A DNA stretch of 63,758 nucleotides, the filler included, from Rhabdomonas costata (taxonomy: Eukaryota), in NCBI GenBank assembly GCA_019059605.1. It is 30 parts of 30 records of this genome, joined end to end, with 100 filler letters (N's around TTAATTAATTAA, not from the genome) between each part and the next. Parts side by side here need not be neighbours in the genome. Positions count along the whole stretch, not along the records: positions 36,188 to 38,215 come from JAHMHO010006286.1; positions 38,316 to 40,344 come from JAHMHO010006287.1; 28 more parts are not named here. One strand, 5' to 3'. Below, in pieces: positions 1-59,700 of this stretch. Each line of letters opens with the position of its first letter. Positions within the stretch are counted from its first letter, which is position 1. A program made the position numbers and the translations under genes. Below the pieces are notes generated by a model, which did no database searches, was not told where the DNA came from, and saw only the letters and a program-made list of their open reading frames with translations.

Positions 1-603
1 TGTTTTTTGTTATCTGCCGCACACATGCTCATCTTTGGTGGGGGCTGATGAGCATGTGTGCGGCAGATAGCAAAAAATAACGAAGGAACTGCGACAGCTG
101 CGGCCAAGGAAGCAGACCAGACGTAGGGAACAGTATCAGTGAAGATTAACGGGAAAGATAACTTTAGGGTCTTTCATGCAGAGAAGGGAAACAGGGTTCA
201 ATTGGCAGAGGCCAGTGTTTCTTTTCACGACATCTCCAAATTGAATTTCCGGTTTTAAATTGGCTTCAACTTGGTATCTGGTGGTCTGAAATCGCGCATC
301 CCCCATCCCACCTCATTCATGAAGTTCCGGCTTTTCCCACTGCGTCGAAAACAACAAAGACACAAAAAAGCTTCCAGTTGAATGGAAACAAATGCTGGGT
401 GTCAGGAGGTCAGCGGAGAAGGAGAGAAAGAAGGAGTGCAACCAGTTGTACAACAAGTGCCTAAAAAGCAAATGTGGGCGAGGCGACGGGAACCACACGG
501 AAAGGGCAAAGGAGGGCGGTGACCTGCCAGCACGGATAGCCATTAGTGGATAAGCAGAGAGAGGGACAGATCTCGGGCAGCACCCAAGCAGGGGAGGCGT
601 TGG

Positions 604-1460
604 CTACATCCGGTCCGTGATTGCCCCATCCCCCTCCTCTCTGAGGCCGGGACATTCCCCCAACGCAGTTTGTATGCCGGGAGTGCATTCCTCCAACAGT
701 GTCACCGGCACTCCTGGATAGCTCTCCTTCGGTTCAGTCGTCGGTACATCGGGATGGCGATCTTCCAAAACTTCCACTGGAACCACCGGCACTTCTTGAC
801 ATTCCTTCGACGTCGTCTGCATGTCGGGATGGCAATCTTCCGAAGCTTTCACTAGCACCGGCACCTCCGGATGGCTTTCCTTTGACGCAGTCGTCTGCAC
901 ATCGGAATGGCGATCTTCCGACGCTTCCGCTAGCACTTCTGGACAGCATTCCTCCAACGGTGCCGCCGGCACTTCTGGAGAAACCGCTTGCGTGTCCGGA
1001 CGACTGTCCTCCACTGATGCCAAGCTCATCTTCAGGTGGCTTTCCTTCAAATGTACCACTGAAACCTTTTCCAACGCTGCCGCCGTCTCGGCTTCACTTC
1101 CCACCTCTGGCAATGTGGGCGTGGCCGTGCTCATCTTTCTCAGATTTCCTCCATCTGAGCCTGACTGCAGACCATCTTCCTCTGCTGGATGGGAGACTAC
1201 GGGAAATTTAGGACCGGGACCGGGGTTCTCAGCGATGGTAGAGGAGAGGGCGGCCGGAAAGGGGATCACAGAGGACCCCGGAGAGGGCAGCAGGAGGTGC
1301 CCCACACGGCAGAGGAAGCTGTGCAGAGCAGCAATCACAGTGGGGTCGTCGTTGGGGAGCAGGTCGACGAAGGTGAAGTAGAATGCAGATGCGGGGCGCT
1401 TAACCTGTGCGGACCGGTCGCGGGGCGGAGGAAAAGGACAAGCCCCAGGAGGGGGGGCCA
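604..1460 (-). CDS. Terminal exon of a hypothetical acidic/proline-rich protein with internal tandem repeats
   Basis: Long open frame ending in TAG after a ctcctgcaag acceptor. About three copies of (S/L)ED(R/C)H(P/S)D(V/M)xTTxxKExxPEVPV. A further upstream exon is likely near 1925-2000. Confidence 0.5.
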
Positions 1461-2029
1461 CTTGCAGGAGTGAACAGATGAGTGCACATTTAGCAGTGAC
1501 GCCGACACAACAAGACACGTCACCATAGAATGCAAACACAACACCCGTCACACATCTGGACGACCAACGATCGTTTCATTCGGTTGCAAAACACACTACT
1601 GCGCCAAAAGTTTCAAAGAAAAACAATTCTCACCTCTGTAGACATAGCGCACTGGGGTGGAAACCGAAAAAAAGCGACCACCGCGCTCAATAGCACGAAC
1701 CTAAAACCATAGAAATAGCATCCAAACAGATGCGCGTTGAGCGCTCTTCATCGCAGCATCACGTCTTTGCCGGCTTGTATTCACGAATACACTCGATAAA
1801 ATTCCCACAAACGATATCCCTTGAGTACGATGAGTCCAAAGCATGCTGCAGGGCAAAACTGCAAGCTGGGCTTCCTTGGAGGCACCGCGGAAAGAGTAAA
1901 GCACAAGCAGCGGGTGCGCGTCCACCTTCTCGTCGGGAAGTTCGGCGCAGCTGGCGAGGAACTGGCACACCACGCGGTTCAGAACAGCAACCTCCTGGCG
2001 GGAGGGCGAGCCCCCACCCCCACCCCCAC

Positions 2030-2129
2030 NNNNNNNNNNNNNNNNNNNNNNNNNNNNNNNNNNNNNNNNNNNNTTAATTAATTAANNNNNNNNNNNNNNN
2101 NNNNNNNNNNNNNNNNNNNNNNNNNNNNN
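2030..2129. other. Artificial contig spacer (first of 29 identical N44-TTAATTAATTAA-N44 linkers)
   Basis: The same 100-nt block, with stops in all six frames, recurs about every 2.13 kb. ORFs that run into X's are artefacts and there is no synteny across spacers. Confidence 0.98.
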
Positions 2130-3149
2130 TTTTGTTGGGGAACGCTCCCAGGCTGGTCCTGCGGCCTCTCTGCCGGGTAGAACCACTGGTGCAGTGAGGG
2201 CACGTTTGCTCGGCATAACCATCCATGCTCGTTCACTTTGGGTCCTTGGAAGGGATTTCCCGCCCATTCCTCCACGGTGGGTTATAATTCGAGTGAGCTC
2301 GAGACGGCGGTGGCGGGTGATGGCATTTTCAAATTTTCACTTCTTGGTAGCATCAGTGGGGGCATTTCAAAATTCAATTGCGAGAGACCCGGAGAAGTGC
2401 GAGGGTTTGCTTCTGGCCGTTGTGTTGCACACGCTTGGGGGGCGTGGCCAGTAATTGCACCGCGGAGCAGCGCGAATTTGAGCCCAACCGGTTCTGCCCA
2501 AAAACCATTTCCAAAATAAATTACGAAGAAATTCGATTTTCGAAAACTTTCGATTTTTTATCGTTAAAACCGTTGATTTTTATCGTTTGAAAGTCACCAG
2601 CGGGTTGGGTTGTCAGCAAAGTAAGTTGGTCCTTAAGCTCCAAGTGAGAGGCGAGGTGACGGAGCGATGTCGGAGCACCTTTACCCACCTGTGTGTGTGA
2701 GGAGGGGGGGCTCGCAGCTCCGACATGTGCCACGATGCCCCCTCGTTCCTGCCCTTTGGGGACCCTGCACTGGATCAATCCATCCTTCCCGCACTGCAGA
2801 TCTAGCATGTGCACTGCCGACGACTGCTGCAGACCCGGTACTTGCTAGCGAGGCAGCCTCCCCGCTGCCCTGTTTCCTCCCAGTCATTCATACTCACCGG
2901 CTCAGGGCTTTCAAATGGATCTCCCCATTGTTCTCTTTCAGCTCTTCCGTTCCACCTTTCCCCCATTGGGCTCTTCTTCTCCACTTCACATTCCTTTGCA
3001 GTTGTGTGGTCCCACCTACTCCCTCCACGTGCCATTTCTACCTTTACACAGCTTCTCAGCTCTTTTCTTTTGAGTGTGTCTGAAGCGCAGTTGTGTTTGT
3101 TCCCCTCCCTTCCCTGCGTTTTCATCCCTGCTCTTGCTCTTAGCCTGCT

Positions 3150-3224
3150 TCTTTCTCTCTCGCTCTCTTTCGCTCTCGCTCTCGCTCTCTCTCGCTCTCG
3201 CTCTCGCTCTCGCTCTCGCTCTCG

Positions 3225-3255
<31 letters not shown>
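3150..3255. repeat. Compound (CTCGCT)n/(CT)n microsatellite
   Basis: Directly visible; it produces the spurious RE/RS/LA-repeat ORFs in the track. Confidence 0.95.
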
Positions 3256-3643
3256 ATCTGGACATTTAACTCGCCACTGGGTTGGGACTTTGATCCCATA
3301 CTGTATCCCTTCCTCTTCATTGCTTTCGTCGATCCACCGAGATAGTCACTGAACTCCCGACAAGTTCCCGGTGTCTTTGGGGCGCTGATCATGCTTTTTC
3401 GAGGGCCTTTTTCGACCTTCGTGTCCTTCCCTATTCTGATGCTGTAGAAAAAAAATTGCTGCAAATGGGTCTCCTCCGGGCAACGTGTCGTACGAATGAA
3501 TGGCCCTGCAACTTCGAATTTATATATTGATTTGAATTTGTTCAAAGCAATCAATTTACACCAATGCGGGTGGTCAGGAGAGGAGACAAGGACAAGTTAG
3601 CACCAAAACCCGAATTGCTCTTTAGTGCACGCAAGAGGCGCAC

Positions 3644-4860: not shown

Positions 4861-6399
4861 ACACAACAAACAACGCTGATTCGTGTACGTATTTAATGCG
4901 GCCCACCACTCCTTCACGGTTTCTAGCCACACGTACGTGGATATCAAACTATTTAACTTCATTCTGATGATTGACAACATGAAGTCTTTGTGGAGAAGAT
5001 TGTGCTCTCAATTGTCGTAAAGAAATCTCCAACGACTTATCACCCACGCCACAAAGACAACAACAGAAACATATGCGCCTATATCTAACCTGGTTAGCAA
5101 CGCCATCAAGCGGACACTGTAAAGCACTGACACATCAGCGACAGACTTTATTAGCGCAGACCAGACAATTTCAAACAATCAGCTGACTGAGCAAGAAGAC
5201 AACAGAGCTTGGTAAAACCTTCCACTTCATCAGCATATTCTGACATGTGCTGATAAGAGCGCTTTGGTTCCAATTGCCGCGAATCACCGTAGATCATGGA
5301 TCCGCTCAACTACTGATGACACTGAGCACTAAGCAGCGTGAAGCTAAACCACGTGCTGTGGAAACAGTGTTTATTCCATAAGTTTATTGCACGTTTCACG
5401 GGTGTTGTAACTCATTTCCAATAGTGAGAAATAATGCACGGTTCAGCTTTTGTATACTGATATGGTTGCAAAGAAACACCTCATTCACAGTCCCACATCT
5501 CAAATTTACACCCTCCGTTTTTCGTGCCACAACTGCATGGTGCATCGGTTTGTTTTTAGCTTTTTAGTATTTCATTCAACACATAAGCAGACATTCACCA
5601 TCTTCAAGTTTCGTACCTCTGGTGTGTTGATGCATGTTAGGCACGGGCTTGAGTGTGGTCTAAAACAAAAATGCGTAGCGCAAGCCTTCGTTCGAGTGCA
5701 GTTGTTGCTTCTAACTTGGCGACACCCACAGATTCAATACAGGTTAATTTACTGTTGGCCAGATTTCTATCAAGTGCTTATATATTTAATTGCACTTCGC
5801 TTTCAGTCATTTGAGTTCAAAGAATAATTATCCAGAATACTAAGCGGAGTTGGCCTCAAACTCAGAGACCTCCATGCTTTAAAAGTCTTACGCCGAGCAG
5901 TCGTCGTTGGTTTCCCATGTTAATTATTAACTACAGATTTTCTCTCATGAAGCCGTAAGGTTAACAAAAAGTTCATCTAACAACAGATGAAACGCCAAAA
6001 TCACGTGGACCCCATTTACAACGGCATCCAAATATCCAAATCGGGCACAAGTGCATTTGTGTCCCCCCCATATCAAGTGCATTTATGCCCCTCGCCACGT
6101 ACCCACCCAAAAGCTTATTTTTCAATCCCGGGAACCGTGCACCGCTACCTAACACCTGCAAATCCATTTATTAGAATCCCAGGGAACACGTACATCACCT
6201 CCTAACCCCATGCAAACTAAGAAATGGGACCAAAAAACAAAAATTGACAGATCACTCTACCGGGGGGGGGCCTAAATGAACTTGCGCCNNNNNNNNNNNN
6301 NNNNNNNNNNNNNNNNNNNNNNNNNNNNNNNNTTAATTAATTAANNNNNNNNNNNNNNNNNNNNNNNNNNNNNNNNNNNNNNNNNNNNGGTGGGTGGGG

Positions 6400-7211
6400 T
6401 CCTGGGGTGCTCGGTGTCGGTGATGACTAGGGAGATGTTGTAGAAGATGTGGGTCTTGCGGGAGCGCGTGAGGTCTGGGGACCACGCCTCGAAGAACTTC
6501 TGCTGCTGATTCCACTGCTGCAGCCGGCGCTCCTGCTCCTCCTTGCGGTCCACCTACTCCACCAAAAGGGACACAGAGGTCAATTTATGTGTCGTCGTTG
6601 CAAAAGGGGACGGAACCCCGTGGAGCTCTCTCACCACGCATCATGTGAAGAGGCTGCTCCACACACATCCACACACAGCTCATCCTGCAAGAGCGGGGGC
6701 AAGGCCCATTGCGGAATTCACAGCATTGTTGGTCGACAGCGGGGAAAAGTTTCGGCTGCAGGCACTGGCGGGACACAGCAGACATCTCGGCTATGTCTAG
6801 ATATTCGTTCTCTATAGACCCTCAAAAGCCATAGGAAGGATTGGTACCCCACTTGCGGTGGGGTACCAATATCGGCCTCCTTCGGTGCTAACCAGAATTA
6901 TCGAAGGTGCACTGCCGCAGTAGAAACGAAACCCCACTAACCCAAAGACAAAATCATTTCAAGGGTGCCGGGACACTTTTACCAAACCTTCTTTTACGAG
7001 GAAATTTAAGACAGCCGGAAACCATAATCACCCCCCCTCCTCATCGTAAATTGGTTCACCTACGGGGGGTGGGGTTCGGGATGACCTCCTCAAAGACTCC
7101 CTCGTGGTAGGGAAACTTGTTGTAGTCCAGGGCTAGCACGTGGGCCAGGGAGTGACTGATCCGAGGCGCTAAGATGTACGGCTGCTCCGGACCATCCAGG
7201 AACTGCGACTG
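6400..7211 (-). CDS. Two exons of a hypothetical protein (about 7086-7211 and 6400-6553)
   Basis: GC3-rich coding-like frames joined in phase 0 by a GT-AG intron (...YHEGVFEE|VDRKEEQERRLQQW...). No family recognised. Confidence 0.5.
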
Positions 7212-10377: not shown

Positions 10378-12857
10378 CACGCCACCTCGTTGCTGGAGAT
10401 CTCCGGCTTGCAGCCGTGGCGGATCAGGATGGGGAACTTCCCGGGCTCTGGCCGGCCGCTGACCACCGAGGTGCGGCGGTCCGCGCTCCGGTCCGCGAAG
10501 TCCCATACGGACTGCCGGCGAAGCACATCCTTGCCCTGCCACCCCCCCCNNNNNNNNNNNNNNNNNNNNNNNNNNNNNNNNNNNNNNNNNNNNTTAATTA
10601 ATTAANNNNNNNNNNNNNNNNNNNNNNNNNNNNNNNNNNNNNNNNNNNNGGGTTTTGGTATACACAGAAATACCACGCGAAAATTCACCTGGTGGTGGTG
10701 AAGATGGAGTAATGAGTGATGCTTATGGTAAGGCTCTACGTGATACATAAATAGCCAGAGAGGTGACAGAATGATTAGAGGAGAGGAAGGATTATGGGAT
10801 ACTACTCCTAATTTGTATGACCCTCATTCTTCGGGCCCTGCTACGTGTAAGCATAAAAGCCCAAGATGTAGACTTATGAAGGGGAGCCCGCAGATGGCGA
10901 TATTTAATACTACGGCTTCGTATTCGTGACTCTACTGCGCGGGTATGCCTCGCAAGACTTGTCATTCTCATCCGCGAAGATAATACCAGCTAAGATGATA
11001 CCAAGGTATAGAATTCATATGGCGAAATGTTGGTATGCACGGGGATCTGGAGAGGAAACCACCACACATGCACGAAATAGAGTGATGGGCGGATGGGGGC
11101 CCGAGGTGGTTGCTGTTCGTATGCTCCCTGATGATCTCATACTCACTAAATGCTGAACAACCTATGCCTACTACGTGGTGACCTAAGTGACGGAGTAGGG
11201 CTCGGCATACTCCAAATCTAACGATGAATACAGTACAAAACCCAGATTTGTAAGCATCAAAACGCTGACATTGGATCCTGAGGTCGTGCGAAGTTGTGGT
11301 GTTTTGCAGCACTGCTCAAAATGGTGACATCTGCTTGTGAACACATCCTTGGAGATTTTTGGGAGCTGTTGGCCGAAATAAAGAATATCAAACCATTAAG
11401 TTATATAAATGAGATTTTCAACACACAAAGCCGAAGTACAAAAACACCAAACTTCCATTGGATTCCTTTTTCCCTCTGAATCAGGAAAAATAAAAATCGA
11501 AACAACATGAGTATGTGCCACCGCAAATGTCAACAGCACTTGTTCGTGCATCTAAATCTCAACCTTTTGTGTCGTAATGGGTGTACAAAGTCTTCTTGTG
11601 ACTCTGTTGCCTCGCTCTTTTTCTTGGGTTCTTCTCCTTTGGGATTCGTGGGATTCGTGAAGCGGCTCTCTTTCTGATGCAGTCGTCTTTATCGCGCTAA
11701 GGCGGCCTCCGTGACAAGTGGGAAGTCCATTTTCCATGTATGTTTTACCTGGAAATCCCATCGGAGGTGAGCCACGGCCAAGAAGTCCGACACCTGGCGC
11801 AACTGGCGCTCCAACATTCGGCTGAACAACGGAGCAATGGGTACACCGGCGCCATCAACGTGGTAATGGGCACCCATTCGCGGTATTCTGCCGATTGGTG
11901 GTTCTTGTGTCCGTTCCGGCAACGTTCTGGCTTTGCCCTTGTGTGTGCGTTTGTTTAGTGGCTTACCACTGAGGCCCACTGCGGATGGATGGGTCGATTA
12001 CGCCACCAGAAAAACCATTACAATTCACTGAAAATTCAAATTTTCTGCCACGTGGATATGCGAATCAACGTGTGTGTGTGTGTGTGTGTGTCTCTCTCTC
12101 TCTCTCTCTCTCTCTCCCTTCCCCCCCCCCCCCCCCCCCACAATTCAGTTCAGCTGAATTGTTCCCTTTTTTGCGGCCACATCTCATAGTCCAACTTCCA
12201 TCGTTATGCCCACAGTTCAGCAGAGTAGCGCTGAAGGAAATCAACCGAAGAGATGAAAAGGAAAAATTTAGGCGATTTAATAATGCAATAAATTGCGCTC
12301 TGGGCAGTTGTGCTTGTGGTATTGAGCAAATTGCACCCCAATGTAAGGTGAAGACAAGAAAAACCCTTAAACAACCGATAGAAAACATGGTAAATATTGT
12401 CATTTTCTCAAAAATCAGCCCAACACCGACCACCACTTCCACCCCACAAACCACAAGAGACTATTCCCCAAAACTCCACTAAAGCGATGGCGACTAAAAA
12501 CGGGAGGGGCGAAACTGTGCCAATAGCCCTTTCTTATCTCAACCCATCCCGTTGTTTTGGGGTGGTTTTCCTTCTTCCGGGATAGGTAGTGACGGCAGAA
12601 GAAACGAAGGACCGCCGGTATGTCAAAGAAAAAACATGAAAGACTGCGGCACGTCCGCCGCAGGAGCCCGGCGGGTCAANNNNNNNNNNNNNNNNNNNNN
12701 NNNNNNNNNNNNNNNNNNNNNNNTTAATTAATTAANNNNNNNNNNNNNNNNNNNNNNNNNNNNNNNNNNNNNNNNNNNNGGTTTTGCAAAGAACTTTGGG
12801 GAGAGAGAGAGAGATGTGAGAAGGCGTGTTGGTAGCGGCCTTCTCATTTTTCCGAAG

Positions 12858-36187: not shown

Positions 36188-36337
36188 TGTTCTTTTTCAT
36201 TTACTATTTGGCTTAGTTCTGCTTCCTTATCTAGAAATTGAGTTTCTTGTTCATTTATCTCTTATATGATTTGTTCAAGTTCTTTGTGTGTTTTGCCGAC
36301 GTTTTCATTGTATATGTCTTGAATGACTTGGATCCAT
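36188..36337 (-). pseudogene. Disrupted coiled-coil ORF start downstream of the polyQ ORF
   Basis: ATG GAT CC, then a frameshift into IQVIQDIYNENVGKTHKELEQII*EINEQETQFLDKEAELSQIVNEKE, with TAA at 36262-36264. Confidence 0.45.
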
Positions 36338-36357
36338 TATACTAATACCTAAGATTT

Positions 36358-37407
36358 TTATTGTGGCCTGTTTCTAATTCTGTTTAATAAAACGCTTGCA
36401 GCATGTGCAGCCTGTACAGCCTGTGCGGCCTGTACAGCCTGTGCGGCCTGTATTGATCCTTGTTGCTGTTGGTGCTGCTGTTGCATTTGTAATTGTAACA
36501 GCAATTGTTGTTCTTGTTCCTGTTGTTGCGCTTGTTGTTGTGCTTGCTGTTGTGCTTGCTGTAATTGTAATTGCATCATCAATTGCTGTTCTTGTTGAGC
36601 TTGTTGTTGAGCTTGCATTACTGGTTCATCTTCGTGTTGTTCCTGTAATTCATTAGGTGCAGAGGATGAAGAAGAAGCAGATGATGAAGATGAAGGTAGT
36701 AATGCTGAGAATCTTGGCGCAATCTCTTCAAATTGTGGTAAGTGTTTACCTGTTGCACTTAAATATATAGTATCATTTTCAAGAATATCATTAAATTGTT
36801 TAACAATAAATTTTTCCCATGGCCATTTTTTATTTTTAATTCCATCTTCTAAATAAAGTAAATTCTTGATCATTTCAGGATGTTTTCCCTCAATTTCGCG
36901 TAAAAATTGTTCACGACTTTTTAAGAAATTGGTAGTTTTAGTCAATAAAGAATCTTTTTTCTTTTTAATCAGTTCAAGTTCTGACTGTGCGACTTTCTCA
37001 TCTAATATTGCTTGTTGTATTCTTTCTTTTGCCTTTTCAAGTTGGAGCTGTGCTCGTTTTTCAGATTCTAGTATGTTTCTAACTGCTTTTTTATCTTGCT
37101 GAAAACTGTAAACATCTTCATTAAATGGTATACCGATAAGTTTATCTGCAACTCGTTTGAAAAACCCCCGTTTGTGCGATGGTTCATTATCTCCATCATT
37201 TGGACGTTTCATTCCTCCTATAATCTCTTTTACAATTCCTTTTTTCTTAAGATTTTCATGAGAAGCATTATTAATATGTTCTTCTACCAATTGTAAAAGT
37301 TCTTTGTATTCATTTTCTGTTAGATTTAGTCTTTTTAATTCCCTAATAACATTATGTTTTGTGATCGCTTTTAGACCATTTAGCGATACTTGCCGTTTAC
37401 CTTTCAT
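36358..37407 (-). CDS. Hypothetical 349-aa coiled-coil protein with Ser- and polyQ/QA-rich C-terminus (viral/Polinton accessory)
   Basis: Intact intronless ATG-to-TAA ORF in AT-rich DNA, divergent from the ATPase. Confidence 0.75.
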   Translation of the reverse strand: MKGKRQVSLNGLKAITKHNVIRELKRLNLTENEYKELLQLVEEHINNASHENLKKKGIVKEIIGGMKRPNDGDNEPSHKRGFFKRVADKLIGIPFNEDVYSFQQDKKAVRNILESEKRAQLQLEKAKERIQQAILDEKVAQSELELIKKKKDSLLTKTTNFLKSREQFLREIEGKHPEMIKNLLYLEDGIKNKKWPWEKFIVKQFNDILENDTIYLSATGKHLPQFEEIAPRFSALLPSSSSSASSSSSAPNELQEQHEDEPVMQAQQQAQQEQQLMMQLQLQQAQQQAQQQAQQQEQEQQLLLQLQMQQQHQQQQGSIQAAQAVQAAQAVQAAHAASVLLNRIRNRPQ

Positions 37408-37453
37408 ATATATTTACGTAACATTTTTAATATCACGTAATATTATTATAATA
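37408..37453. promoter_or_regulatory. Putative bidirectional promoter (46 bp)
   Basis: Short AT-rich gap between divergent ATGs, containing TTACGTAA and TCACGTAA. Confidence 0.45.
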
Positions 37454-38125
37454 ATGTCACAAAAGAATAAGTCTAAATTACCAGATGAAATAATTTATAT
37501 TCCTAATGCCGATAAAGAAAACTATGAAAAAGCAGATCCAAACAATCTTGCCAACATGCCTGCGCCTAATCGTATAGCGTTCTGCGGTGTACCAGGCCTG
37601 GGTAAGACACAAGCTATAAAAAACGTACTTATTAGGTCCTTCCCGCCATACGAACGCATTGTTGTTTATCATGTTGACCCAACGTCAGAGGAGTACAGCG
37701 ATATAGACGCAGAGTACGTTTCGGAAATTCCAGAGGTTGATTTTTGGGATAGAAATATGAAAAATCTATTCATTTTAGAAGACATAAATTTTAAACGGTT
37801 AAAATCCGATCAACGCCAGCTCGTTGATAGATACTATGGATCATTCAGTACGCATCATTCAATATCTGTATGGTCCACTTTTCAACGTGCTTTTGCATGT
37901 CCACCAGAAATTAGAGATTATTGTAATATTTTGTTTATTTGGAATTCAAAAAATCTTCGTTCTTTAGTTTATCTAGCTTCGACATTAGGTATTGAAGCCG
38001 ATGATTTTAAATACATATTCAAAAACATCTGTAAAGATAAACATGATTTTCTTGTTATTGATTCAACTAGACCTGATGCACACTTGCGAAAAAATATATT
38101 TGAAGTTATTAAATATAGTGGTTAA
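37454..38125 (+). CDS. A32-like (FtsK-HerA superfamily) DNA packaging ATPase, 223 aa
   Basis: Walker A CGVPGLGKT, Walker B LFILED, then STHHSISVWSTFQ and PPEIRDYCNILFIW, the motif order of A32/Polinton/virophage ATPases. Likely true ATG at 37454. Confidence 0.85.
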   Translation: MSQKNKSKLPDEIIYIPNADKENYEKADPNNLANMPAPNRIAFCGVPGLGKTQAIKNVLIRSFPPYERIVVYHVDPTSEEYSDIDAEYVSEIPEVDFWDRNMKNLFILEDINFKRLKSDQRQLVDRYYGSFSTHHSISVWSTFQRAFACPPEIRDYCNILFIWNSKNLRSLVYLASTLGIEADDFKYIFKNICKDKHDFLVIDSTRPDAHLRKNIFEVIKYSG

Positions 38126-39113
38126 ATTGAATATTCATTTTAACCACTATATTTAATAACTTCAAATATATTTTTTCGCAAGTGTGCATCAGGTCTAGTT
38201 GAATCAACAACCAACNNNNNNNNNNNNNNNNNNNNNNNNNNNNNNNNNNNNNNNNNNNNTTAATTAATTAANNNNNNNNNNNNNNNNNNNNNNNNNNNNN
38301 NNNNNNNNNNNNNNNGTGGGGTGGGGGCAGGGTGCGCTAGGTATAGTTTTGCCGAAAGTCGACCCGGCCGAAAGCCTGTGATCAGTATGCGAGAAAAAGA
38401 TCCAAAAAGTGCCCTGGTGGAAATGGCACTAATGGCTCCGATCATCTTTCCCGCCCCAAGCATGCGCAAGCTGGGGAATTTTAATTCAGGTGCACAAAAA
38501 TTATGCAGAACCGAACCGAACGGAACCGAGGCGAAGGCCGACGCTCAGGATCACCATTATCACCATGGTTGGGGTATTCAAGGGGAGCACACAAGCCCAA
38601 AACGAAACAGCTCGAATGAAGAAAGACAAAGTCGGATGTACCTTCCACAAGGTCAACATCTCAACCGCAGTCAAAAACAGCCAGTGAGTGGCAACAAATT
38701 GGCTTGCTGTTAGAGTGTTGCAATGTTGCGAGGAGAAAGATGATTCCTCAGCTTCATTCTTGCTGCGACAAAAAGCGAACCCGAAACTCGAAGTGAGAAC
38801 TCGACTCAACATCGAAGTTCTCACGGGATACTAACATCAAATAGTAACAACGAAAGACGTTATAGAGGAAAAAAGGCAAAGTGCTACAATGGGACACAGC
38901 AGGAACCCTAACTTGCAAATAACATTCCAACCATCTTGACCTGGGGCCACACCACATCCGCATAAAAACTTCACAACCTGCGAACACTTGACGTTTTGTT
39001 TTTTGCTTCAACAGTGCCATCCTGAATCACGATGCCTTGTTCACCAACCCGTGGCAAATCGACTTCTTAATCTTTATGTCTGAGCGAGGCAGGCTCAAGA
39101 GTGCGAGTCTTTT

Positions 39114-40223
39114 CTACCACCAGTACAAGGGATACTGCCGCCCCTTGGGAAGGTTGTTCAACACCACGGCAAGCCCCAGCATCACCAGCGTACCAGAGAG
39201 GGCGGGCATGACAACGTACAGATAGCCTGCGCTCTTGATCTGCTCAGAGCCCAGGACGGCTAACAGCGCGGTAGCTCCACCTGCCGTTGACAGAAAGTGA
39301 ACATCCGCTGTTGACCAACACCTAGGAGGAGTCCTTACAATGCACCCAAAATCGCAAGCTACATATAATTCAAGCAATGAAAAGACTGCGCACGTTACTG
39401 TAGAAAACTGTTTGCGCTTAGTGTGGCAATACCATACCATACCATACCATACCATACCATACCATACCATACCATACCATACCATACCATACCATACCAT
39501 ACCATACCACATGACACCATAACGTTTCATACAACACAACCATACAACACAACACAATACGATACCGTACTAAACCATACAATACATCACAATACGCAAG
39601 ATACCGAGACACATGACACTTTCCTCACGCACTCGACCCGTTTCTCGAGAACGGCACGGGATGCGATACAGTAGGTCGTTCCCAACAAAAGCCCTGCAGT
39701 GAGACAATGCCAAAGGAGATGCGGTTCGTTGTCCATCCAATAAACATGCGGGAACCCCAACAATGAGAGATCTTGAAAACCTTGGAAGACTCCACGCAAA
39801 AGAAAGATCGAGGTGGAGAGAGGATGCGCAATAAAACCAGCACAAACAGGCCCGTAGCACCATGCCTGGTGGGTGTGCAGCATTGGCCAGGCTCATCAGG
39901 AAAACGGCCGAGGCCACCGCCAGCCCCGATGAGAAGCACCGGAAGGCATACGGGTCCCCAAACGCAGAGAAGATCTTTTGCACCGTCACTCCCGCGAGGG
40001 CAGAGAGGACCTGCCCCAGCACAACATTTCGGGGCTGCGCCGCCGGGGCAGTGATCAGTTCATACAAAAGCACCGCAGAAGCCCCGAAGGTGGGCACGAT
40101 CATCACCAAATCGGTGCTTTCAAGAGCGTTGAAGTGCAACGCCCCCACCGTGGTAATCCCAATGAAGGTGAAGAGGGCAGACCACAGCCATGTTCCTTCG
40201 CAGGACCAATGCAGGCTTTCGCG
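39114..40223 (-). CDS. HPP-family integral membrane protein, last two exons (39866-40223, 39114-39280)
   Basis: FGASAVLLY...APAAQPRNVVLGQ...HPPG|GATAL...NNLPKGRQYPLYWW*. The HPPGGATAL motif is restored only by a GC-AG intron at 39865-39281. Confidence 0.9.
39429..39510. repeat. (ATACC)n microsatellite in the HPP intron
   Basis: Directly visible. Confidence 0.95.
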
Positions 40224-40448
40224 CTATCAGCGAACAGAATAGAACCGGCAGCAATATGGTCGAACAACCCAGCAGCCTCCACCTTGTTCGGCGGACCAAA
40301 TCTGCGCTCATCAGAATCAGAGCATAGCTTGTCAAATGTTTCCANNNNNNNNNNNNNNNNNNNNNNNNNNNNNNNNNNNNNNNNNNNNTTAATTAATTAA
40401 NNNNNNNNNNNNNNNNNNNNNNNNNNNNNNNNNNNNNNNNNNNNGGTG

Positions 40449-40491
<43 letters not shown>

Positions 40492-48489: not shown

Positions 48490-49899
48490 GTTCGTCTTTC
48501 CCCTCATCCTCTCCCCTCTGGATGCAATGGGAAACCTCTTCGCGAACTCCTGATATGCGTTTTGTGCGGAGAACGCGAAACCGTTTCCACTGACCGGACG
48601 AAGTGATGCGTTGCTCTGCCAAAAGGAAACGCTTTAGCTAAAAAAGTCATAACGAAAGAAAGGCTTGCCTCATACTTCTCGTGCTCGTTTCTCCTCCCAG
48701 ACCACACTGTCATTTGGCCGTGGGCATCCTCTGCCGGAGTGCGCAGTGGAATGTCTCCTGATTGCCTGCATCTGGGTTTTGCCAGTGTCGTGTTCTGCTC
48801 TCCATTCAATGCACTTCAATGTCATCGACCGTTTTGAACCATGGCAGAGCCCACGTGTTCGGAACACCNNNNNNNNNNNNNNNNNNNNNNNNNNNNNNNN
48901 NNNNNNNNNNNNTTAATTAATTAANNNNNNNNNNNNNNNNNNNNNNNNNNNNNNNNNNNNNNNNNNNNGTTTTTTGTGTAATTTTATCGTTTTATGTAAC
49001 GCACATTTGGCTTTTGTCAGTCCAAATGGCATAGAGGTTGTTTTCTATTGATATGAATTGGTAATTACTGCTGGAAGCTTGTCTTGAAAGACGCCTAGTT
49101 AGTCTAGTAATTCATATGGCACAGGTGCTGTGGAAACAGGCGGCACACACCTCCAGTGATAGACTATGTAGTGGAACGTTAGCTTCATACTCCTTTTGTT
49201 TACAACGGCTCTTGGATTTCGAGGTTAGTGGGCGAGTTGGTGTAGATAATCCTGGTGAGGCATGTGGCGTTTGCGCTCCAGATGTGGAATCAGTCTGCGG
49301 CAAACTCCAATAGATTGCGACACGTTGTGTGGTAGGTGATGGTTTGACACTGGAGTGGGTAATATGCTTTGTCCTTGAAGCTCCAAAACTTGGTCCAAAA
49401 CTTCCGGCTGTAGCGTCAAGGCTTAAGTGGGTGGGATTGCTTCTAGGTATGGCTAGATTTCGAGCTTGATTTAGGCATCTTTGATATGTTTGAATATCCT
49501 CTAACATGGACAATGACTGGCCTACGCCAAAAATCTGGTAATGACGCCTAATACATCAGCTTCCGACAGAAGTGACACTTGTGTAGAAATTTCCTACTGA
49601 AAAAACGCTGGAGGGTATACCACCGATGCAGAAAAGACAGTAGTGGCAGCATGTTCCTAAGAACGTGATCCAAATGCTGTATAGACAGCTCAGTAGTGGC
49701 TGACTTCCATGCAACCACAACAGTGTCCCACCACTCCAAAAAACACAATCAATCCCTACATATACACAAGCACTACATCGTTCTGATTATCAACCACCAA
49801 ATCTGTCCTCGTTTGCATAGCGAATTCTATTCACACTCGCCCATAGTTGAATTGGTTTATTTGGTCACAAATATGAAGGTTAACGTTTTGTATAGTTAC

Positions 49900-50760
49900 A
49901 AACTGCAGTGATGTTGAAATATACGACAACACGTAATGTCAGTACGATGACATTATGGCGGAAGATTTGCCGTTATCTCACACAACAGCACACGGTGTCA
50001 AATGTTGTGGTAGAAAAATTAGAGAGAGGTTGTTTGCACAACCATTGCCATGTCCAAATGCCGCGAGCGGCGATAAATATGTCTTATGGAATGTATAGGT
50101 CAAAGAGCATTTGCACAAAATCGTCACAGGTTGTGATTGTGACTTTGTGTAAATAGCCATATGCGCCATACACCATGGCATGTGTGACGCATAGTACTGC
50201 TACATGGTATGGCAGATGCATGGTTATTTTTAATCAGATAGACTTGATGCAACCACTGAAGGAGCCATGCACGATTACAATTCCACTTTTGTGCATATAT
50301 TCCAGCTTTTTGGTGATTGTAGACAAGTCTGATCTTTCACTTGTAGGATGCTGTTTATCGTTTTCTTGATCAAAAAAGGGATTATTTAAATTCCAGATTC
50401 TTCAGATTCTTTTCATTTCTTGCATTGGTTATAGAGATGGATTTGTATCGGAGAAGATTTTCAATGTATCTGGTAGACGTGGAGATGATTTGATAAAACA
50501 ACCGTGATAATCACACACAGATAGACAAATGTGCCAAATGTTCTCTGGTTTAACTATTTTTTTCGACTAATCGATGCAACTGACATTGGAGATTAAACAC
50601 ATAAATCAGGTGGTGGCAAGTCAAACAATAGGAGATGTTAAAACTGGTGCTTGCGCTCGCGTATATTTAATTATGAGGAGATGTATTGTCATCGATTTTG
50701 GTAATTCTTCTGTAGGTTCGTCGGCGAGTGAGCATATCATGCTTGGTGTCGTGGATTGTT
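49900..50760 (-). mobile_element. Possible highly decayed non-LTR retrotransposon 3' portion
   Basis: AT-rich, intronless, stop-riddled DNA. One frame reads HNL*RFCANAL*PIHSIRHIYRR, resembling an eroded CCHC finger. Weak. Confidence 0.25.
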
Positions 50761-51296
50761 TTTGAGGTAAGTATAATTGATGTGAAGTATTTGTAGCTTT
50801 TCAAAATACATGGTGATTATTTGTCTATTCACTCAACCGCTCCAAAATCTGTCTTAAAAGTGACAACGTTTCCAGAAACTTTGTCACTTTTAAGACAGAT
50901 TTTGGAGCGGTTGAGTGAATAGACAAATAATCACCATGTATTTTGAAAAGCTACAAATACTTCACATCAATTATACTTACCTCAAAAACAACCCCNNNNN
51001 NNNNNNNNNNNNNNNNNNNNNNNNNNNNNNNNNNNNNNNTTAATTAATTAANNNNNNNNNNNNNNNNNNNNNNNNNNNNNNNNNNNNNNNNNNNNGCCCG
51101 TATGCTTGCCCGTTCCGCCACGTGGACATGTGGCCGTGTGCCATCATAACTGGAGATATAATGTGGAAGCATCTGATGTCGGCGTCCTTATTTGAAAATC
51201 AGTATGGATGGCGCACATGCAAGGGATGAAGCCGTAAAAGGGCGTTGTACTTCCCCCATCAGTTTCTGCTGCAAGGGGCTTTCTTGGGGTGTGCAG

Positions 51297-56745: not shown

Positions 56746-59700
56746 TTTATGCATGTTTTGTGTGGTGGTGGTGGTGGTGGTAGTAATAGTAGTAGTGATG
56801 GTGGGGGGGTATGTAAACCTACAAGTATTTTCCGACTTTTCGGTTTTTTGTGCAGTCATCAGGTCCGATTACTCGGCCCCAATGTGTTTCTAGTGCAGCG
56901 TCCCTTTTGACTTCGGGCAGTAAGGCGCTCCTTCGGCTTCCACTGTATTCGAGTCCTGCTTCTGCCTGCCTTCAGGTTCGTCAGAGATGAACGTATGTTG
57001 GGAACTCGAGAAGTCCGCCTGGCTCAAGCACTTGCCCATGCGACCCATGTGCAGGGCTAGGGGAGAAGACTTGAGCGCAACGCGCGCTGTACGTTTGGAT
57101 GAGTTCTCCGTGTCGTGGGGAGTGGGGGTGGGTCACCGATCATCACATGGCCCCTAATGGCTTGGTGACTGTGGCAATGTTTTCCGCGATGTTTGTGGCT
57201 TGTTCCAGTGCTTTTTGTGGGCAGCGAACGAATTTGAGTTCGGAAGACTGGAGTGGAGTTCTGTAATATATCGCCGTTCTGTGGTGCATTGTTCGAAAAG
57301 AAATTGCTCCAGACCGGCGACTTGGAGGCATGTGTTGAAGCCTGGGGAAGCAAATAACCAAATCATTCGGAGGCTGNNNNNNNNNNNNNNNNNNNNNNNN
57401 NNNNNNNNNNNNNNNNNNNNTTAATTAATTAANNNNNNNNNNNNNNNNNNNNNNNNNNNNNNNNNNNNNNNNNNNNGTGTTGGGTGTGGTTGGGTGGTGG
57501 GTTCACGACGCGTACCTGAAAAAGAGGGCCTGGCGGTGTGACGTCTGGCTGGAAGCACGACAGTACTCGGGCGGCATTGCAACGCCGTTATGTTGTCCGC
57601 TTCACTTAAGAACTGAGAACTGAGAATTTTTTTTCTTGACGCTGAACCCCAGCCCGTGCCGCAGTGCCGTGAATTGGTTGATCTACAAAAACGGAGGAAT
57701 ATGATAAAATAAAATGGGACATCAGTTTCCCATTTTGCTTCGGGGCGTTGTTGTTGGACTTACAAGTGCTGTTGAAGGCGGAAGGCAGGAAGGGGTTGGA
57801 CCAAAAAAGCGCGGGCGTTTAAAGAAAATCCATCCATCCATCGAATGTTAAGTGCATTGTGATCTTCACAGCCTGCTCAAAGGGGGCAAGTGCCTTGTTT
57901 TCGACATCCCAACAACAATCTTTAATCACTCATTTCTGCACGTTGAATTTACAGTTTTTTTTTTCGTGACGTGCAGTTTTCATGACTATCACGATCCTTT
58001 TTCTGCAACGGAGGCACACAAAGGTAGACAGACCCATAAGAGATCATTCAGGGGGTCTGCAGCACGGGAATTCCAGAAATGAAAGACATGCACCCACGCA
58101 CAAACACACACCTCCAAACAAAGAGAAGTAATGCAATTCTATGCTGTGCAATACAATGTGGTGCTAAGCGCGCCAGTGACCTTAGCGCCGCACTGTCTTC
58201 TCGCGGGGGAAGGGAGACCAGCTCTCCAAGTCCAGCCCTGAAAGAAAGAGGCAGTACAAACCCTCTTTCGAAACCAGAGGTGCATTTTCAGCTTTTCTCA
58301 TTGTTCCAGAAAGCCAGGCGATCATCTTCAATCGAAGAAAAAGAAAAAACCTGCTCCCTAGCACACAAACATCCTTTCGCAGCGACCCAATAGATTCCAA
58401 TTTTCGCCCAAAACGTGGTTAGTAAATTTTTTTTTTTGCAAATTCGTGAAACGCATTCCCTCCATCCCTTTTTCCTCTACCCTGTCTGTCCTTGTCACTC
58501 ACACCGATAACCGGAAATCAGCTTCCAGTTTTATAAAGTCCTCCCACAAATGTACAATACGTATTTCTTCTATTATTGAACCCCAACACCATCGCCATTG
58601 AGAACGTCGCAGCACTGACGACTGCATTCAACACCAAATCAAATGTCATGGCACTTTGGCACACCATCGTTGGTCCTTAAAAAAATGTAAGGGGGTAAGA
58701 ATCAGTGACACTACTTTTCCATCGAAAGAAGGACTCCACAAAATGAGCTGTCTGGTTTAAAGACCGTGAATACCCAACAGAAAAAAAACAACTCGTAAAA
58801 ACCCGTATGCAAAATGTCCGGTCCGAGGCCTTTCCTTCTTCCAGAACAGAGCAGAGCAGTTCAGCAACCGCTGGGGCGAGAACAGCCTCCTGGCATGGTG
58901 GTAGCTCTGGGGGTCGTGCAGGTCCACGCTCAGCGCGGGCCGCGGCGCCAGTCCCACCCGCTCCGCCACCGCAGAGCTCCAGCGGTACCTCGATGAGTTT
59001 GCACTGTGTGTGATCACCCACGTCAGCATCCCCCTGCTCTGCGGAGAGGTCACCTCTGCGCCCGAGCTGCCGCCACGAGGAAGTGCAACGGCACAGAAGA
59101 CGACGAGCGCAAGGGTCGGAACCCACATCTGACGGGCACAAGCTTTTTTTTGGGGGGGTGACGGTCCACCCAATTATCGCTCCCTGTCCCTGTCTGAAGA
59201 AGGGAGTGGTGTCGACAGAAGCAAGGAGGTGGAAGGAATAACCACACCTTCGGAAAAAAAAACACCGATCTGTGAGACACGTGGAGCTGGTTCGTGGAGT
59301 TACTCAGCCCAGACCTCACACACCACTACCTCACAGGAACCAAAGCGTTCAGAAATGTGTGGAAAGGAAAGAAAAGAAAAGGTGGCGCAGCTTGTCGCGC
59401 ATATGGACAGGATACGACGGAAAAGAGTATACACAGACGCACAGTGTGTGCGCTAAGACGTCAGGAAATTCTTCAGCGGGCCCCATTTGGCATCGTCCAT
59501 CTGANNNNNNNNNNNNNNNNNNNNNNNNNNNNNNNNNNNNNNNNNNNNTTAATTAATTAANNNNNNNNNNNNNNNNNNNNNNNNNNNNNNNNNNNNNNNN
59601 NNNNGGTGTTTTTGTCAAAGCCCAGAAGGTCCTGAGAGCAAATCTTACCCAAGAAAAGGGCACTCAACACATCCTGGGGCCAATTGTCCCCTGGAACCTC

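Follow-up and report, generated by a model that had tools for sequence, protein, structure and literature searches.

To our knowledge, polinton-like viruses (PLVs) abound both in aquatic environments and within the genomes of protists, and very few of them have been tied to a host. According to Bellas & Sommaruga (2021, PMC7805220), all PLVs carry a major capsid protein, a minor capsid protein, and a packaging ATPase, the ATPase of each group is highly diverged, and most of the remaining genes are hypothetical. The same study describes classic PLVs as rarely possessing a protein-primed DNA polymerase B (pPolB) and as lacking a protease, and the boundary between Polintons and PLVs as blurred. 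Adintoviruses have phospholipase A2 (PLA2)-like virion genes with a pX-like C-terminal domain, and the virion proteins of this family appear to be restricted to animals (Starrett et al., 2021, PMC8502044). The window analyzed here is a stretch of 63,758 bases from the genome assembly of the protist Rhabdomonas costata (GCA_019059605.1). One of its contigs, located at positions 36188–38215 (JAHMHO010006286.1), is very probably a 2-kb piece of a small double-stranded DNA (dsDNA) virus of the polinton / polinton-like class (Polisuviricotina), with a complete packaging ATPase.

The window is not a single locus and comprises 30 contigs of 2025–2044 bp each, separated by spacers of the form N44-TTAATTAATTAA-N44. 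The contig in question (2028 bp) has a GC content of 0.332, compared with 0.401–0.562 for the other 29 contigs. It contains two divergent open reading frames (ORFs) lying 46 nt apart, one for the ATPase (P0001) and one for a 349-aa protein (P0002), and the homologues of both adjoin on metagenome contigs. The initial annotation, made from the sequence alone, had singled out this contig as AT-rich, intronless, and tightly packed, and each of these traits is borne out by the GC contrast and by the arrangement of the two ORFs.

The ATPase gene (37454–38125, plus strand) has no internal stop and encodes a full-length protein of 223 aa, assigned to the A32 / FtsK-HerA type of packaging ATPases by family profile, fold, and motifs. 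The protein aligns end to end with homologues of 216–224 aa. In a family alignment of 106 sequences (alignment A2), three positions are invariant and 13 nearly so, and the window protein retains every one of them, so that its earlier description as intact is justified. The initial annotation had placed a P-loop ATPase of this length here, with motifs in the A32 order, and the motifs were found in the order Walker A, Walker B, His, and Gln. The Walker A motif GVPGLGKT (residues 45–52; 37586–37609, plus strand) meets the P-loop pattern GxxxxGK[ST]; in the family alignment, G50 is present in 105 of 106 members, K51 in all 106, and Thr or Ser at position 52 in 101. The Walker B motif LFILED (residues 105–110; 37766–37783, plus strand) has Glu or Asp at position 109 in 105 members and D110 in 101. 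Downstream, STHH (residues 132–135; 37847–37858, plus strand) contains the family motif S-[T/S]-H, which aligns with N-R-H of the B204 protein of Sulfolobus turreted icosahedral virus (STIV). Here, H134 is found in 106/106 sequences, and position 133 is occupied by Thr in 59 and by Ser in 47 of them. Finally, Q144 (37883–37885, plus strand), situated after the beta-strand that follows STH, is Gln in 104/106 members and aligns with the Gln of B204.

The RH motif after Walker B, which reads N-R-H in the B204 alignment, is a feature of A32-type ATPases. The initial annotation had remarked on STHH in place of this motif. The residues are indeed there, but they are not aberrant, as S-[T/S]-H is the norm of the family and its His is universal. 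To judge from the alignment, the Arg of the RH motif appears to have been replaced across the whole family and not in the window gene alone. Other arginines conserved in the family are R126, R154, and R212, and any of these could be considered a candidate arginine finger.

Searches with the window protein alone against Pfam, PHROGs, and PDB sequences yielded only P-loop noise, its PHROGs match being weak and partial (phrog_2666, 2.3e-6, residues 134–200). In a set of 5.8 billion proteins, 15 homologues were found at E<=0.01; they are 40–80% identical to the window protein over the aligned part, and all of them are metagenomic. With a cut-off of E<=1e-3, 678 ATPase cluster representatives match; the number falls to 379 with a cut-off of 1e-10 and to 43 with one of 1e-30. 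More than one-half of the family (56/106 members) match the Pfam family Pox_A32 (PF04665) at E<=0.01, with the best E-value of 6.5e-11; the next Pfam family among the relatives is generic AAA, with 25 members. The profile built from alignment A2 matches the genome-packaging NTPase B204 of STIV (4kfr) with E 3.1e-6 over profile positions 41–205, and the only better E-values belong to adenylate kinase 9 and a cilia protein, whose matches are short and confined to the P-loop. A maximum-likelihood tree was built from 62 ATPases; in it, P0003 and L003 are the closest companions of the window protein (support 100/99), and this group is nested in a clade of 11 rows (100/98) that also contains the ATPase of the metagenome locus L001, described below. 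A phage collection of 50,697 records yielded no match.

The structure predicted by AlphaFold2 with the 106-row alignment has a predicted local distance difference test score (pLDDT) of 94.3 and a predicted template modeling score (pTM) of 0.89; a single-sequence run (pLDDT 36.6) was not used. In the Foldseek search of the PDB, chains of B204 occupy nine of the first ten ranks (E 6e-7 to 1.6e-6), rank 9 being a HerA chain. The superposition of the model with B204 has template modeling (TM) scores of 0.53–0.63, with 12–14% sequence identity. Lower matches include FtsK-like coupling proteins (TcpA, EssC) and P-loop ATPases outside the FtsK group (Elp456, RAD51 paralogues, RuvB). Among the top 50 matches in BFVD, giant-virus A32-like or packaging ATPases prevail, and the same 50 include proteins of Yellowstone Lake virophage and Sputnik V3, an adintovirus FtsK-like protein, and proteins of prokaryotic membrane-containing viruses. 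The best structural matches are therefore viral, i.e., B204 in the PDB and A32-like proteins in BFVD, and not cellular ATPases, the other outcome that the initial annotation had envisaged. The model thus gives the window protein the predicted fold of a viral packaging ATPase of the FtsK-HerA type.

The genomic context of the relatives is informative with respect to the class of the virus. A scan of metagenome contigs of the Joint Genome Institute (JGI) identified 24 loci encoding relatives of the ATPase. In the longest of these, L001, 16.5 kb of a 19-kb contig are covered; its GC content is 27–35%, its genes are tightly packed, and its ATPase is 68% identical to that of the window. The language-model features of a 550-aa L001 protein match clusters of double-jelly-roll (DJR) capsid proteins (0.93); the top clusters are of the nucleocytoplasmic large DNA virus (NCLDV) type and DJR-like, and a Sputnik_MCP cluster appears at rank 30 (score 0.89). 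Another protein, of 1087 aa (3–3263, minus strand, open at the locus end), has features matching DNA_pol_B_2 and Endonuclease_7 clusters (0.96, 223/256 features), and a zinc-binding stretch of Endonuclease_7 type was found at its residues 624–664 (Pfam, sub-threshold; phrog_2633). The nearest feature clusters of this protein carry the pair DNA_pol_B_2 and Endonuclease_7 and come mostly from eukaryote genomes.

The remaining genes of L001 include those for a PLA2-like protein (11049–11774, minus strand; PF08398, 2.1e-8), a papain-family protease (PF00112, 7e-8), an HNH endonuclease, and a 1245-aa fiber-like protein. In addition, a 149-aa protein (6395–6844, minus strand) matches neither Pfam nor PHROGs and has an H...D...Q...C pattern, which by eye looks like that of a cysteine protease of the adenain/Ulp1 type. 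Homologues of the PLA2-like protein are encoded in L002, L014, L016, L017, L019, and L021. Close to their C-terminus, 7/7 of these proteins have both a G-G site and an (I/L)-x-G-x-G site, and 6/7 have a G-x-G motif near the N-terminus. The same six loci encode homologues of a 264-aa protein whose gene lies two genes downstream of the L001 ATPase. This protein has no family match and is, from its position alone, a candidate penton (minor capsid) protein. The gene order ATPase / PLA2-like / 264-aa recurs in five loci (L002, L014, L016, L019, and L021). No RVE integrase was seen by Pfam among the nine L001 proteins scanned (16.5 of 19 kb). Overall, the gene content of L001 reads as that of a polinton-type virus.

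Taken together, the viral structural matches, the gene set of L001, and the lack of a relative in the phage collection agree with the earlier proposal of a polinton-type virus fragment. Several results weigh against it, however. The window protein alone has no Pfam match at E<=0.01 and no match to PF04665 even at E<=1, and hence its membership in the A32 group rests on the relatives and the fold. Its identity to any named viral ATPase in BFVD is just 9–20%. No relative was found in IMG/VR by two scans, one with the ATPase alignment and one with the capsid-like alignment, each limited to two peptide patterns. The contig itself carries no capsid, penton, polymerase, or integrase gene, and a tblastn comparison of the other 29 contigs with the ORFs of the 24 related loci gave no match. 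In L001, the 550-aa capsid-like protein has no match in Pfam, PHROGs, or PDB sequences, and the same searches of the polymerase-like protein returned nothing beyond the Endonuclease_7-type stretch; both assignments, made from language-model features alone, are probable. Finally, the 349-aa protein of the window and the L001 protein encoded in the equivalent position show no homology (BLASTP E 0.88; hhalign probability 0.1%).

The lengths of the 30 contigs all lie within a range of 20 bp, as if they had been taken from the assembly by length, and therefore the absence of virus matches among the other 29 says little. G/T-only runs of at least 8 nt are found at the start of 24/30 contigs and C/A-only runs of at least 8 nt at the end of 15/30, compared with 1.7% of internal 8-mers being G/T-only. 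Such runs are seen, e.g., at 1–11, 6389–6400, and 57477–57503, and one contig starts with a 37-nt G/T-only stretch (40445–40481) that is mostly a (GT)n microsatellite. Degenerate G/T primers are used in the amplification of low-input libraries. The G/T- and C/A-only ends look like remnants of such primers and should not be taken for telomeres.

The AT-rich contig ends in the same manner, with a primer-like C/A-only run of 11 nt (38205–38215) resembling other contig ends. It is preceded by a fold-back palindrome (38054–38211), in which the final 72 nt of the coding region of the ATPase, plus 7 further nucleotides, recur in reverse complement. The arms (38054–38132 and 38133–38211) are 79 nt long and 97% complementary, with no loop, and the axis falls on a natural 10-nt palindrome 7 nt past the ATPase stop; in tblastn, the mirrored copy is seen as an additional match in reverse orientation. 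As 38133–38211 mirrors 38054–38132, unique sequence ends near position 38132. The fold-back is probably a snap-back artefact of amplification, and the right end of the contig would accordingly not correspond to a genome terminus. A real hairpin terminus was considered and rejected, because one arm is coding, relatives carry further genes past the ATPase, and a primer-like run follows. In practice, the last 83 bases of the contig are to be treated as mirror artefact plus primer-like run, and contig ends in this assembly need trimming before interpretation.

The C/A-only end run that the AT-rich contig shares with host contigs shows that all of them derive from one amplified library. This would be expected of an endogenous copy integrated into the protist's own nuclear genome, i.e., a provirus of the Polinton/Maverick type and not free or replicating DNA. 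According to three reports (PMC12220804, PMC12721341, PMC10214139), protist genomes commonly contain integrated polinton-like viruses. On the other hand, there is no host-like sequence at either end of the contig, the GC content is 33% throughout, the two genes are intact and have kept every conserved residue, and no integrase gene was seen on the contig or in 16.5 of 19 kb of L001. A young insertion would be compatible with intact genes and with the lack of host flanks on so short a contig. On balance, we regard an endogenous copy as possible though rather unlikely.

A virophage, dependent on a giant virus co-infecting the protist and thus not an autonomous polinton-like virus, appears improbable. 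The ATPases of Yellowstone Lake virophage 5 and Sputnik V3 do appear in the BFVD list, at ranks 13 and 17, and the Sputnik_MCP-containing cluster among the capsid features of L001 points in the same direction, as does the AT-rich box directly before the start codon of the ATPase gene, which resembles promoters of the giant-virus type. However, virophage ATPases, at 14–15% identity, are no closer to the window protein than those of giant viruses, the top capsid-feature clusters of L001 are not of the Sputnik type, and no giant-virus contig was recognized among the 30 contigs, with ten host ORFs scanned. Least of all do the data suggest that the contig derives from a giant virus (Nucleocytoviricota) or from bacterial, archaeal, or phage DNA contaminating the assembly, which we consider very improbable: the best BFVD E-values do belong to giant-virus proteins (Klosneuvirus, Medusavirus, Mimivirus) and the best solved structure to an archaeal virus, but the giant-virus matches are at 12–20% identity only, relatives at 40–76% identity reside on small contigs, the longest being of 19 kb with a polinton-type gene set, the 50,697 phage records gave no match, and the PHROGs match is weak and partial.

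Returning to the fragment of a polinton-class virus, we suggest that it was sampled together with the protist, whose DNA would have been amplified from low input. A role in genome packaging is established for the related proteins PRD1 P9, STIV B204, and vaccinia A32. By analogy, we infer that the ATPase would be placed at one vertex of an empty double-jelly-roll capsid and would pump the linear genome into it, using ATP hydrolysis.

The ATPase gene and its divergent neighbor are separated by a 46-nt spacer (37408–37453), in which a TATA-type box immediately precedes the start of the ATPase gene. In 20/20 sequences (the window and 19 loci; 17 of the sequences are distinct), the 15 nt before the ATPase ATG contain TATA, compared with a background of 11% of 15-mers. 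This arrangement may reflect a conserved promoter and a very short or near-leaderless ATPase transcript. In the window, the box falls within the 15 nt at 37439–37453, and the start of the 349-aa gene likewise directly follows an ATATAT run.

The neighboring gene (36358–37407, minus strand) encodes the lineage-specific 349-aa protein P0002, in which only weak, coiled-coil Pfam matches were observed. The protein consists of a conserved basic N-terminal domain, a coiled-coil middle part, and a Ser-rich and Gln-rich tail. Three homologues were found in the large protein set (40–42% identity). A full-length homologue with 42.6% identity is encoded in L003, in the same position and divergently from the ATPase, and a weaker, N-terminal match is present in L012. 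With these few relatives, the initial impression of an ORF unlike known proteins was correct. Homology with the L001 gene in the same position was considered and rejected on the values given above. The gene slot beside the ATPase appears, by comparison of the loci, to be hypervariable; in L001, the nearest complete relative, it lies between the capsid-like gene and the ATPase, and P0002 would be a fast-evolving protein occupying this variable slot.

Conservation within the P0002 family is highest at I62-x-G64-G65-M66-K67-R68 (37204–37224, minus strand), a stretch that is invariant in an alignment of seven sequences (A4). The consensus site of the adenovirus protease is (M/I/L)-x-G-G|x. As the invariant stretch fits this consensus, it is a candidate cleavage site for an adenain-type protease; the PLA2-like proteins of the related loci also have the conserved Gly-Gly and Gly-x-Gly sites described above. 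We therefore propose, with low confidence and at less than even odds, that P0002 is the precursor of a core or scaffold protein of the virion, which the cysteine protease of the virus would cut at the invariant I-x-G-G|M site.

At the left end of the contig, downstream of the 349-aa gene, the list of stop-to-stop ORFs shows 170 nt (36188–36357) without an ORF that has a start codon, and then the contig breaks; in a comparison with the ORFs of the 24 related loci, this segment matched nothing. One frame would be open here if TAA and TAG were sense codons. Such a reading was rejected, because each of the two full genes terminates with TAA where the length of its homologues predicts.

The other 29 contigs contain short ORFs only. 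One of the ten long host ORFs scanned has a Pfam match, an HPP transmembrane domain (PF04982, 4.8e-29) at 39573–40223 on the minus strand, and scans of the whole window for Rfam families and tRNAs were empty. The contig with the second-lowest GC content (48969–50995; 0.401) again has short ORFs only, with no match to the virus-like loci. A tandem repeat at 39114–39612, in a host contig of 50% GC, translates into WYGMV and YHTIP pentapeptides in several frames.

If the contig truly comes from in or on the protist cell, it links to a host a clade that is otherwise confined to metagenomes (24 JGI loci, 15 protein clusters). We tentatively consider, as a reading that is more doubtful than otherwise in its joint form, that the window contig, P0003/L003, and L001 belong to a lineage of protist viruses within the polinton class that would rank as a family and has no name. 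The marks of such a lineage would be a pPolB with an Endonuclease-VII-like insert, adenain-like and papain-like proteases, an entry protein of the PLA2-like type, a slot of hypervariable gene content separating the capsid gene from that of the ATPase, and the S-[T/S]-H variant of the RH motif, with P0002 as a core or scaffold precursor cut at I-x-G-G|M. Should this be true, the low-input protist library would provide the first physical link of the lineage to a host cell. In a more sober perspective, fragments with A32-like ATPases are, according to the literature, expected in protist assemblies, and the knowledge of polinton-like viruses is unchanged: the contig is an additional example of a well-known kind of virus.

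Among the described packaging ATPases, vaccinia A32, STIV B204, and PRD1 P9 (PF04665) share with the window protein the stand-alone architecture of approximately 220 aa and the order of Walker A, Walker B, His, and Gln. B204 is the closest by predicted fold, and the family profile aligns with it over nearly the full length; the difference is that the Arg of N-R-H is Thr or Ser in 106/106 family members. With respect to PF04665, the window protein lies below every Pfam threshold, unlike the 56/106 relatives that match. The virophage ATPases (Sputnik V3, Yellowstone Lake virophage 5) are similar in fold class and size, with Foldseek E-values of 1.4e-8 and 2.3e-8, and differ by the low identity noted above, which is no higher than that of giant-virus homologues.

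At the level of gene content, the window contig differs from Polintons and adintoviruses in having no polymerase, protease, or PLA2-like gene, and L001 differs from Polintons/Mavericks in that 16.5 of its 19 kb showed neither an RVE integrase nor terminal inverted repeats. What L001 has in common with Polintons/Mavericks and adintoviruses is a polymerase apparently of the pPolB type, an FtsK/HerA ATPase, a candidate adenain-like protease, and a PLA2-like protein; in particular, PLA2-like proteins of the L001 type resemble those of adintoviruses in their conserved Gly-Gly and Gly-x-Gly sites. From classic PLVs, as they are characterized in PMC7805220, L001 is set apart by its pPolB-like gene and two candidate cysteine proteases. 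With the PLVs of aquatic protists, the window contig and L001 agree in their gene picture, and an AT-rich genome of the size of L001, densely packed with genes, is in keeping with them as well.

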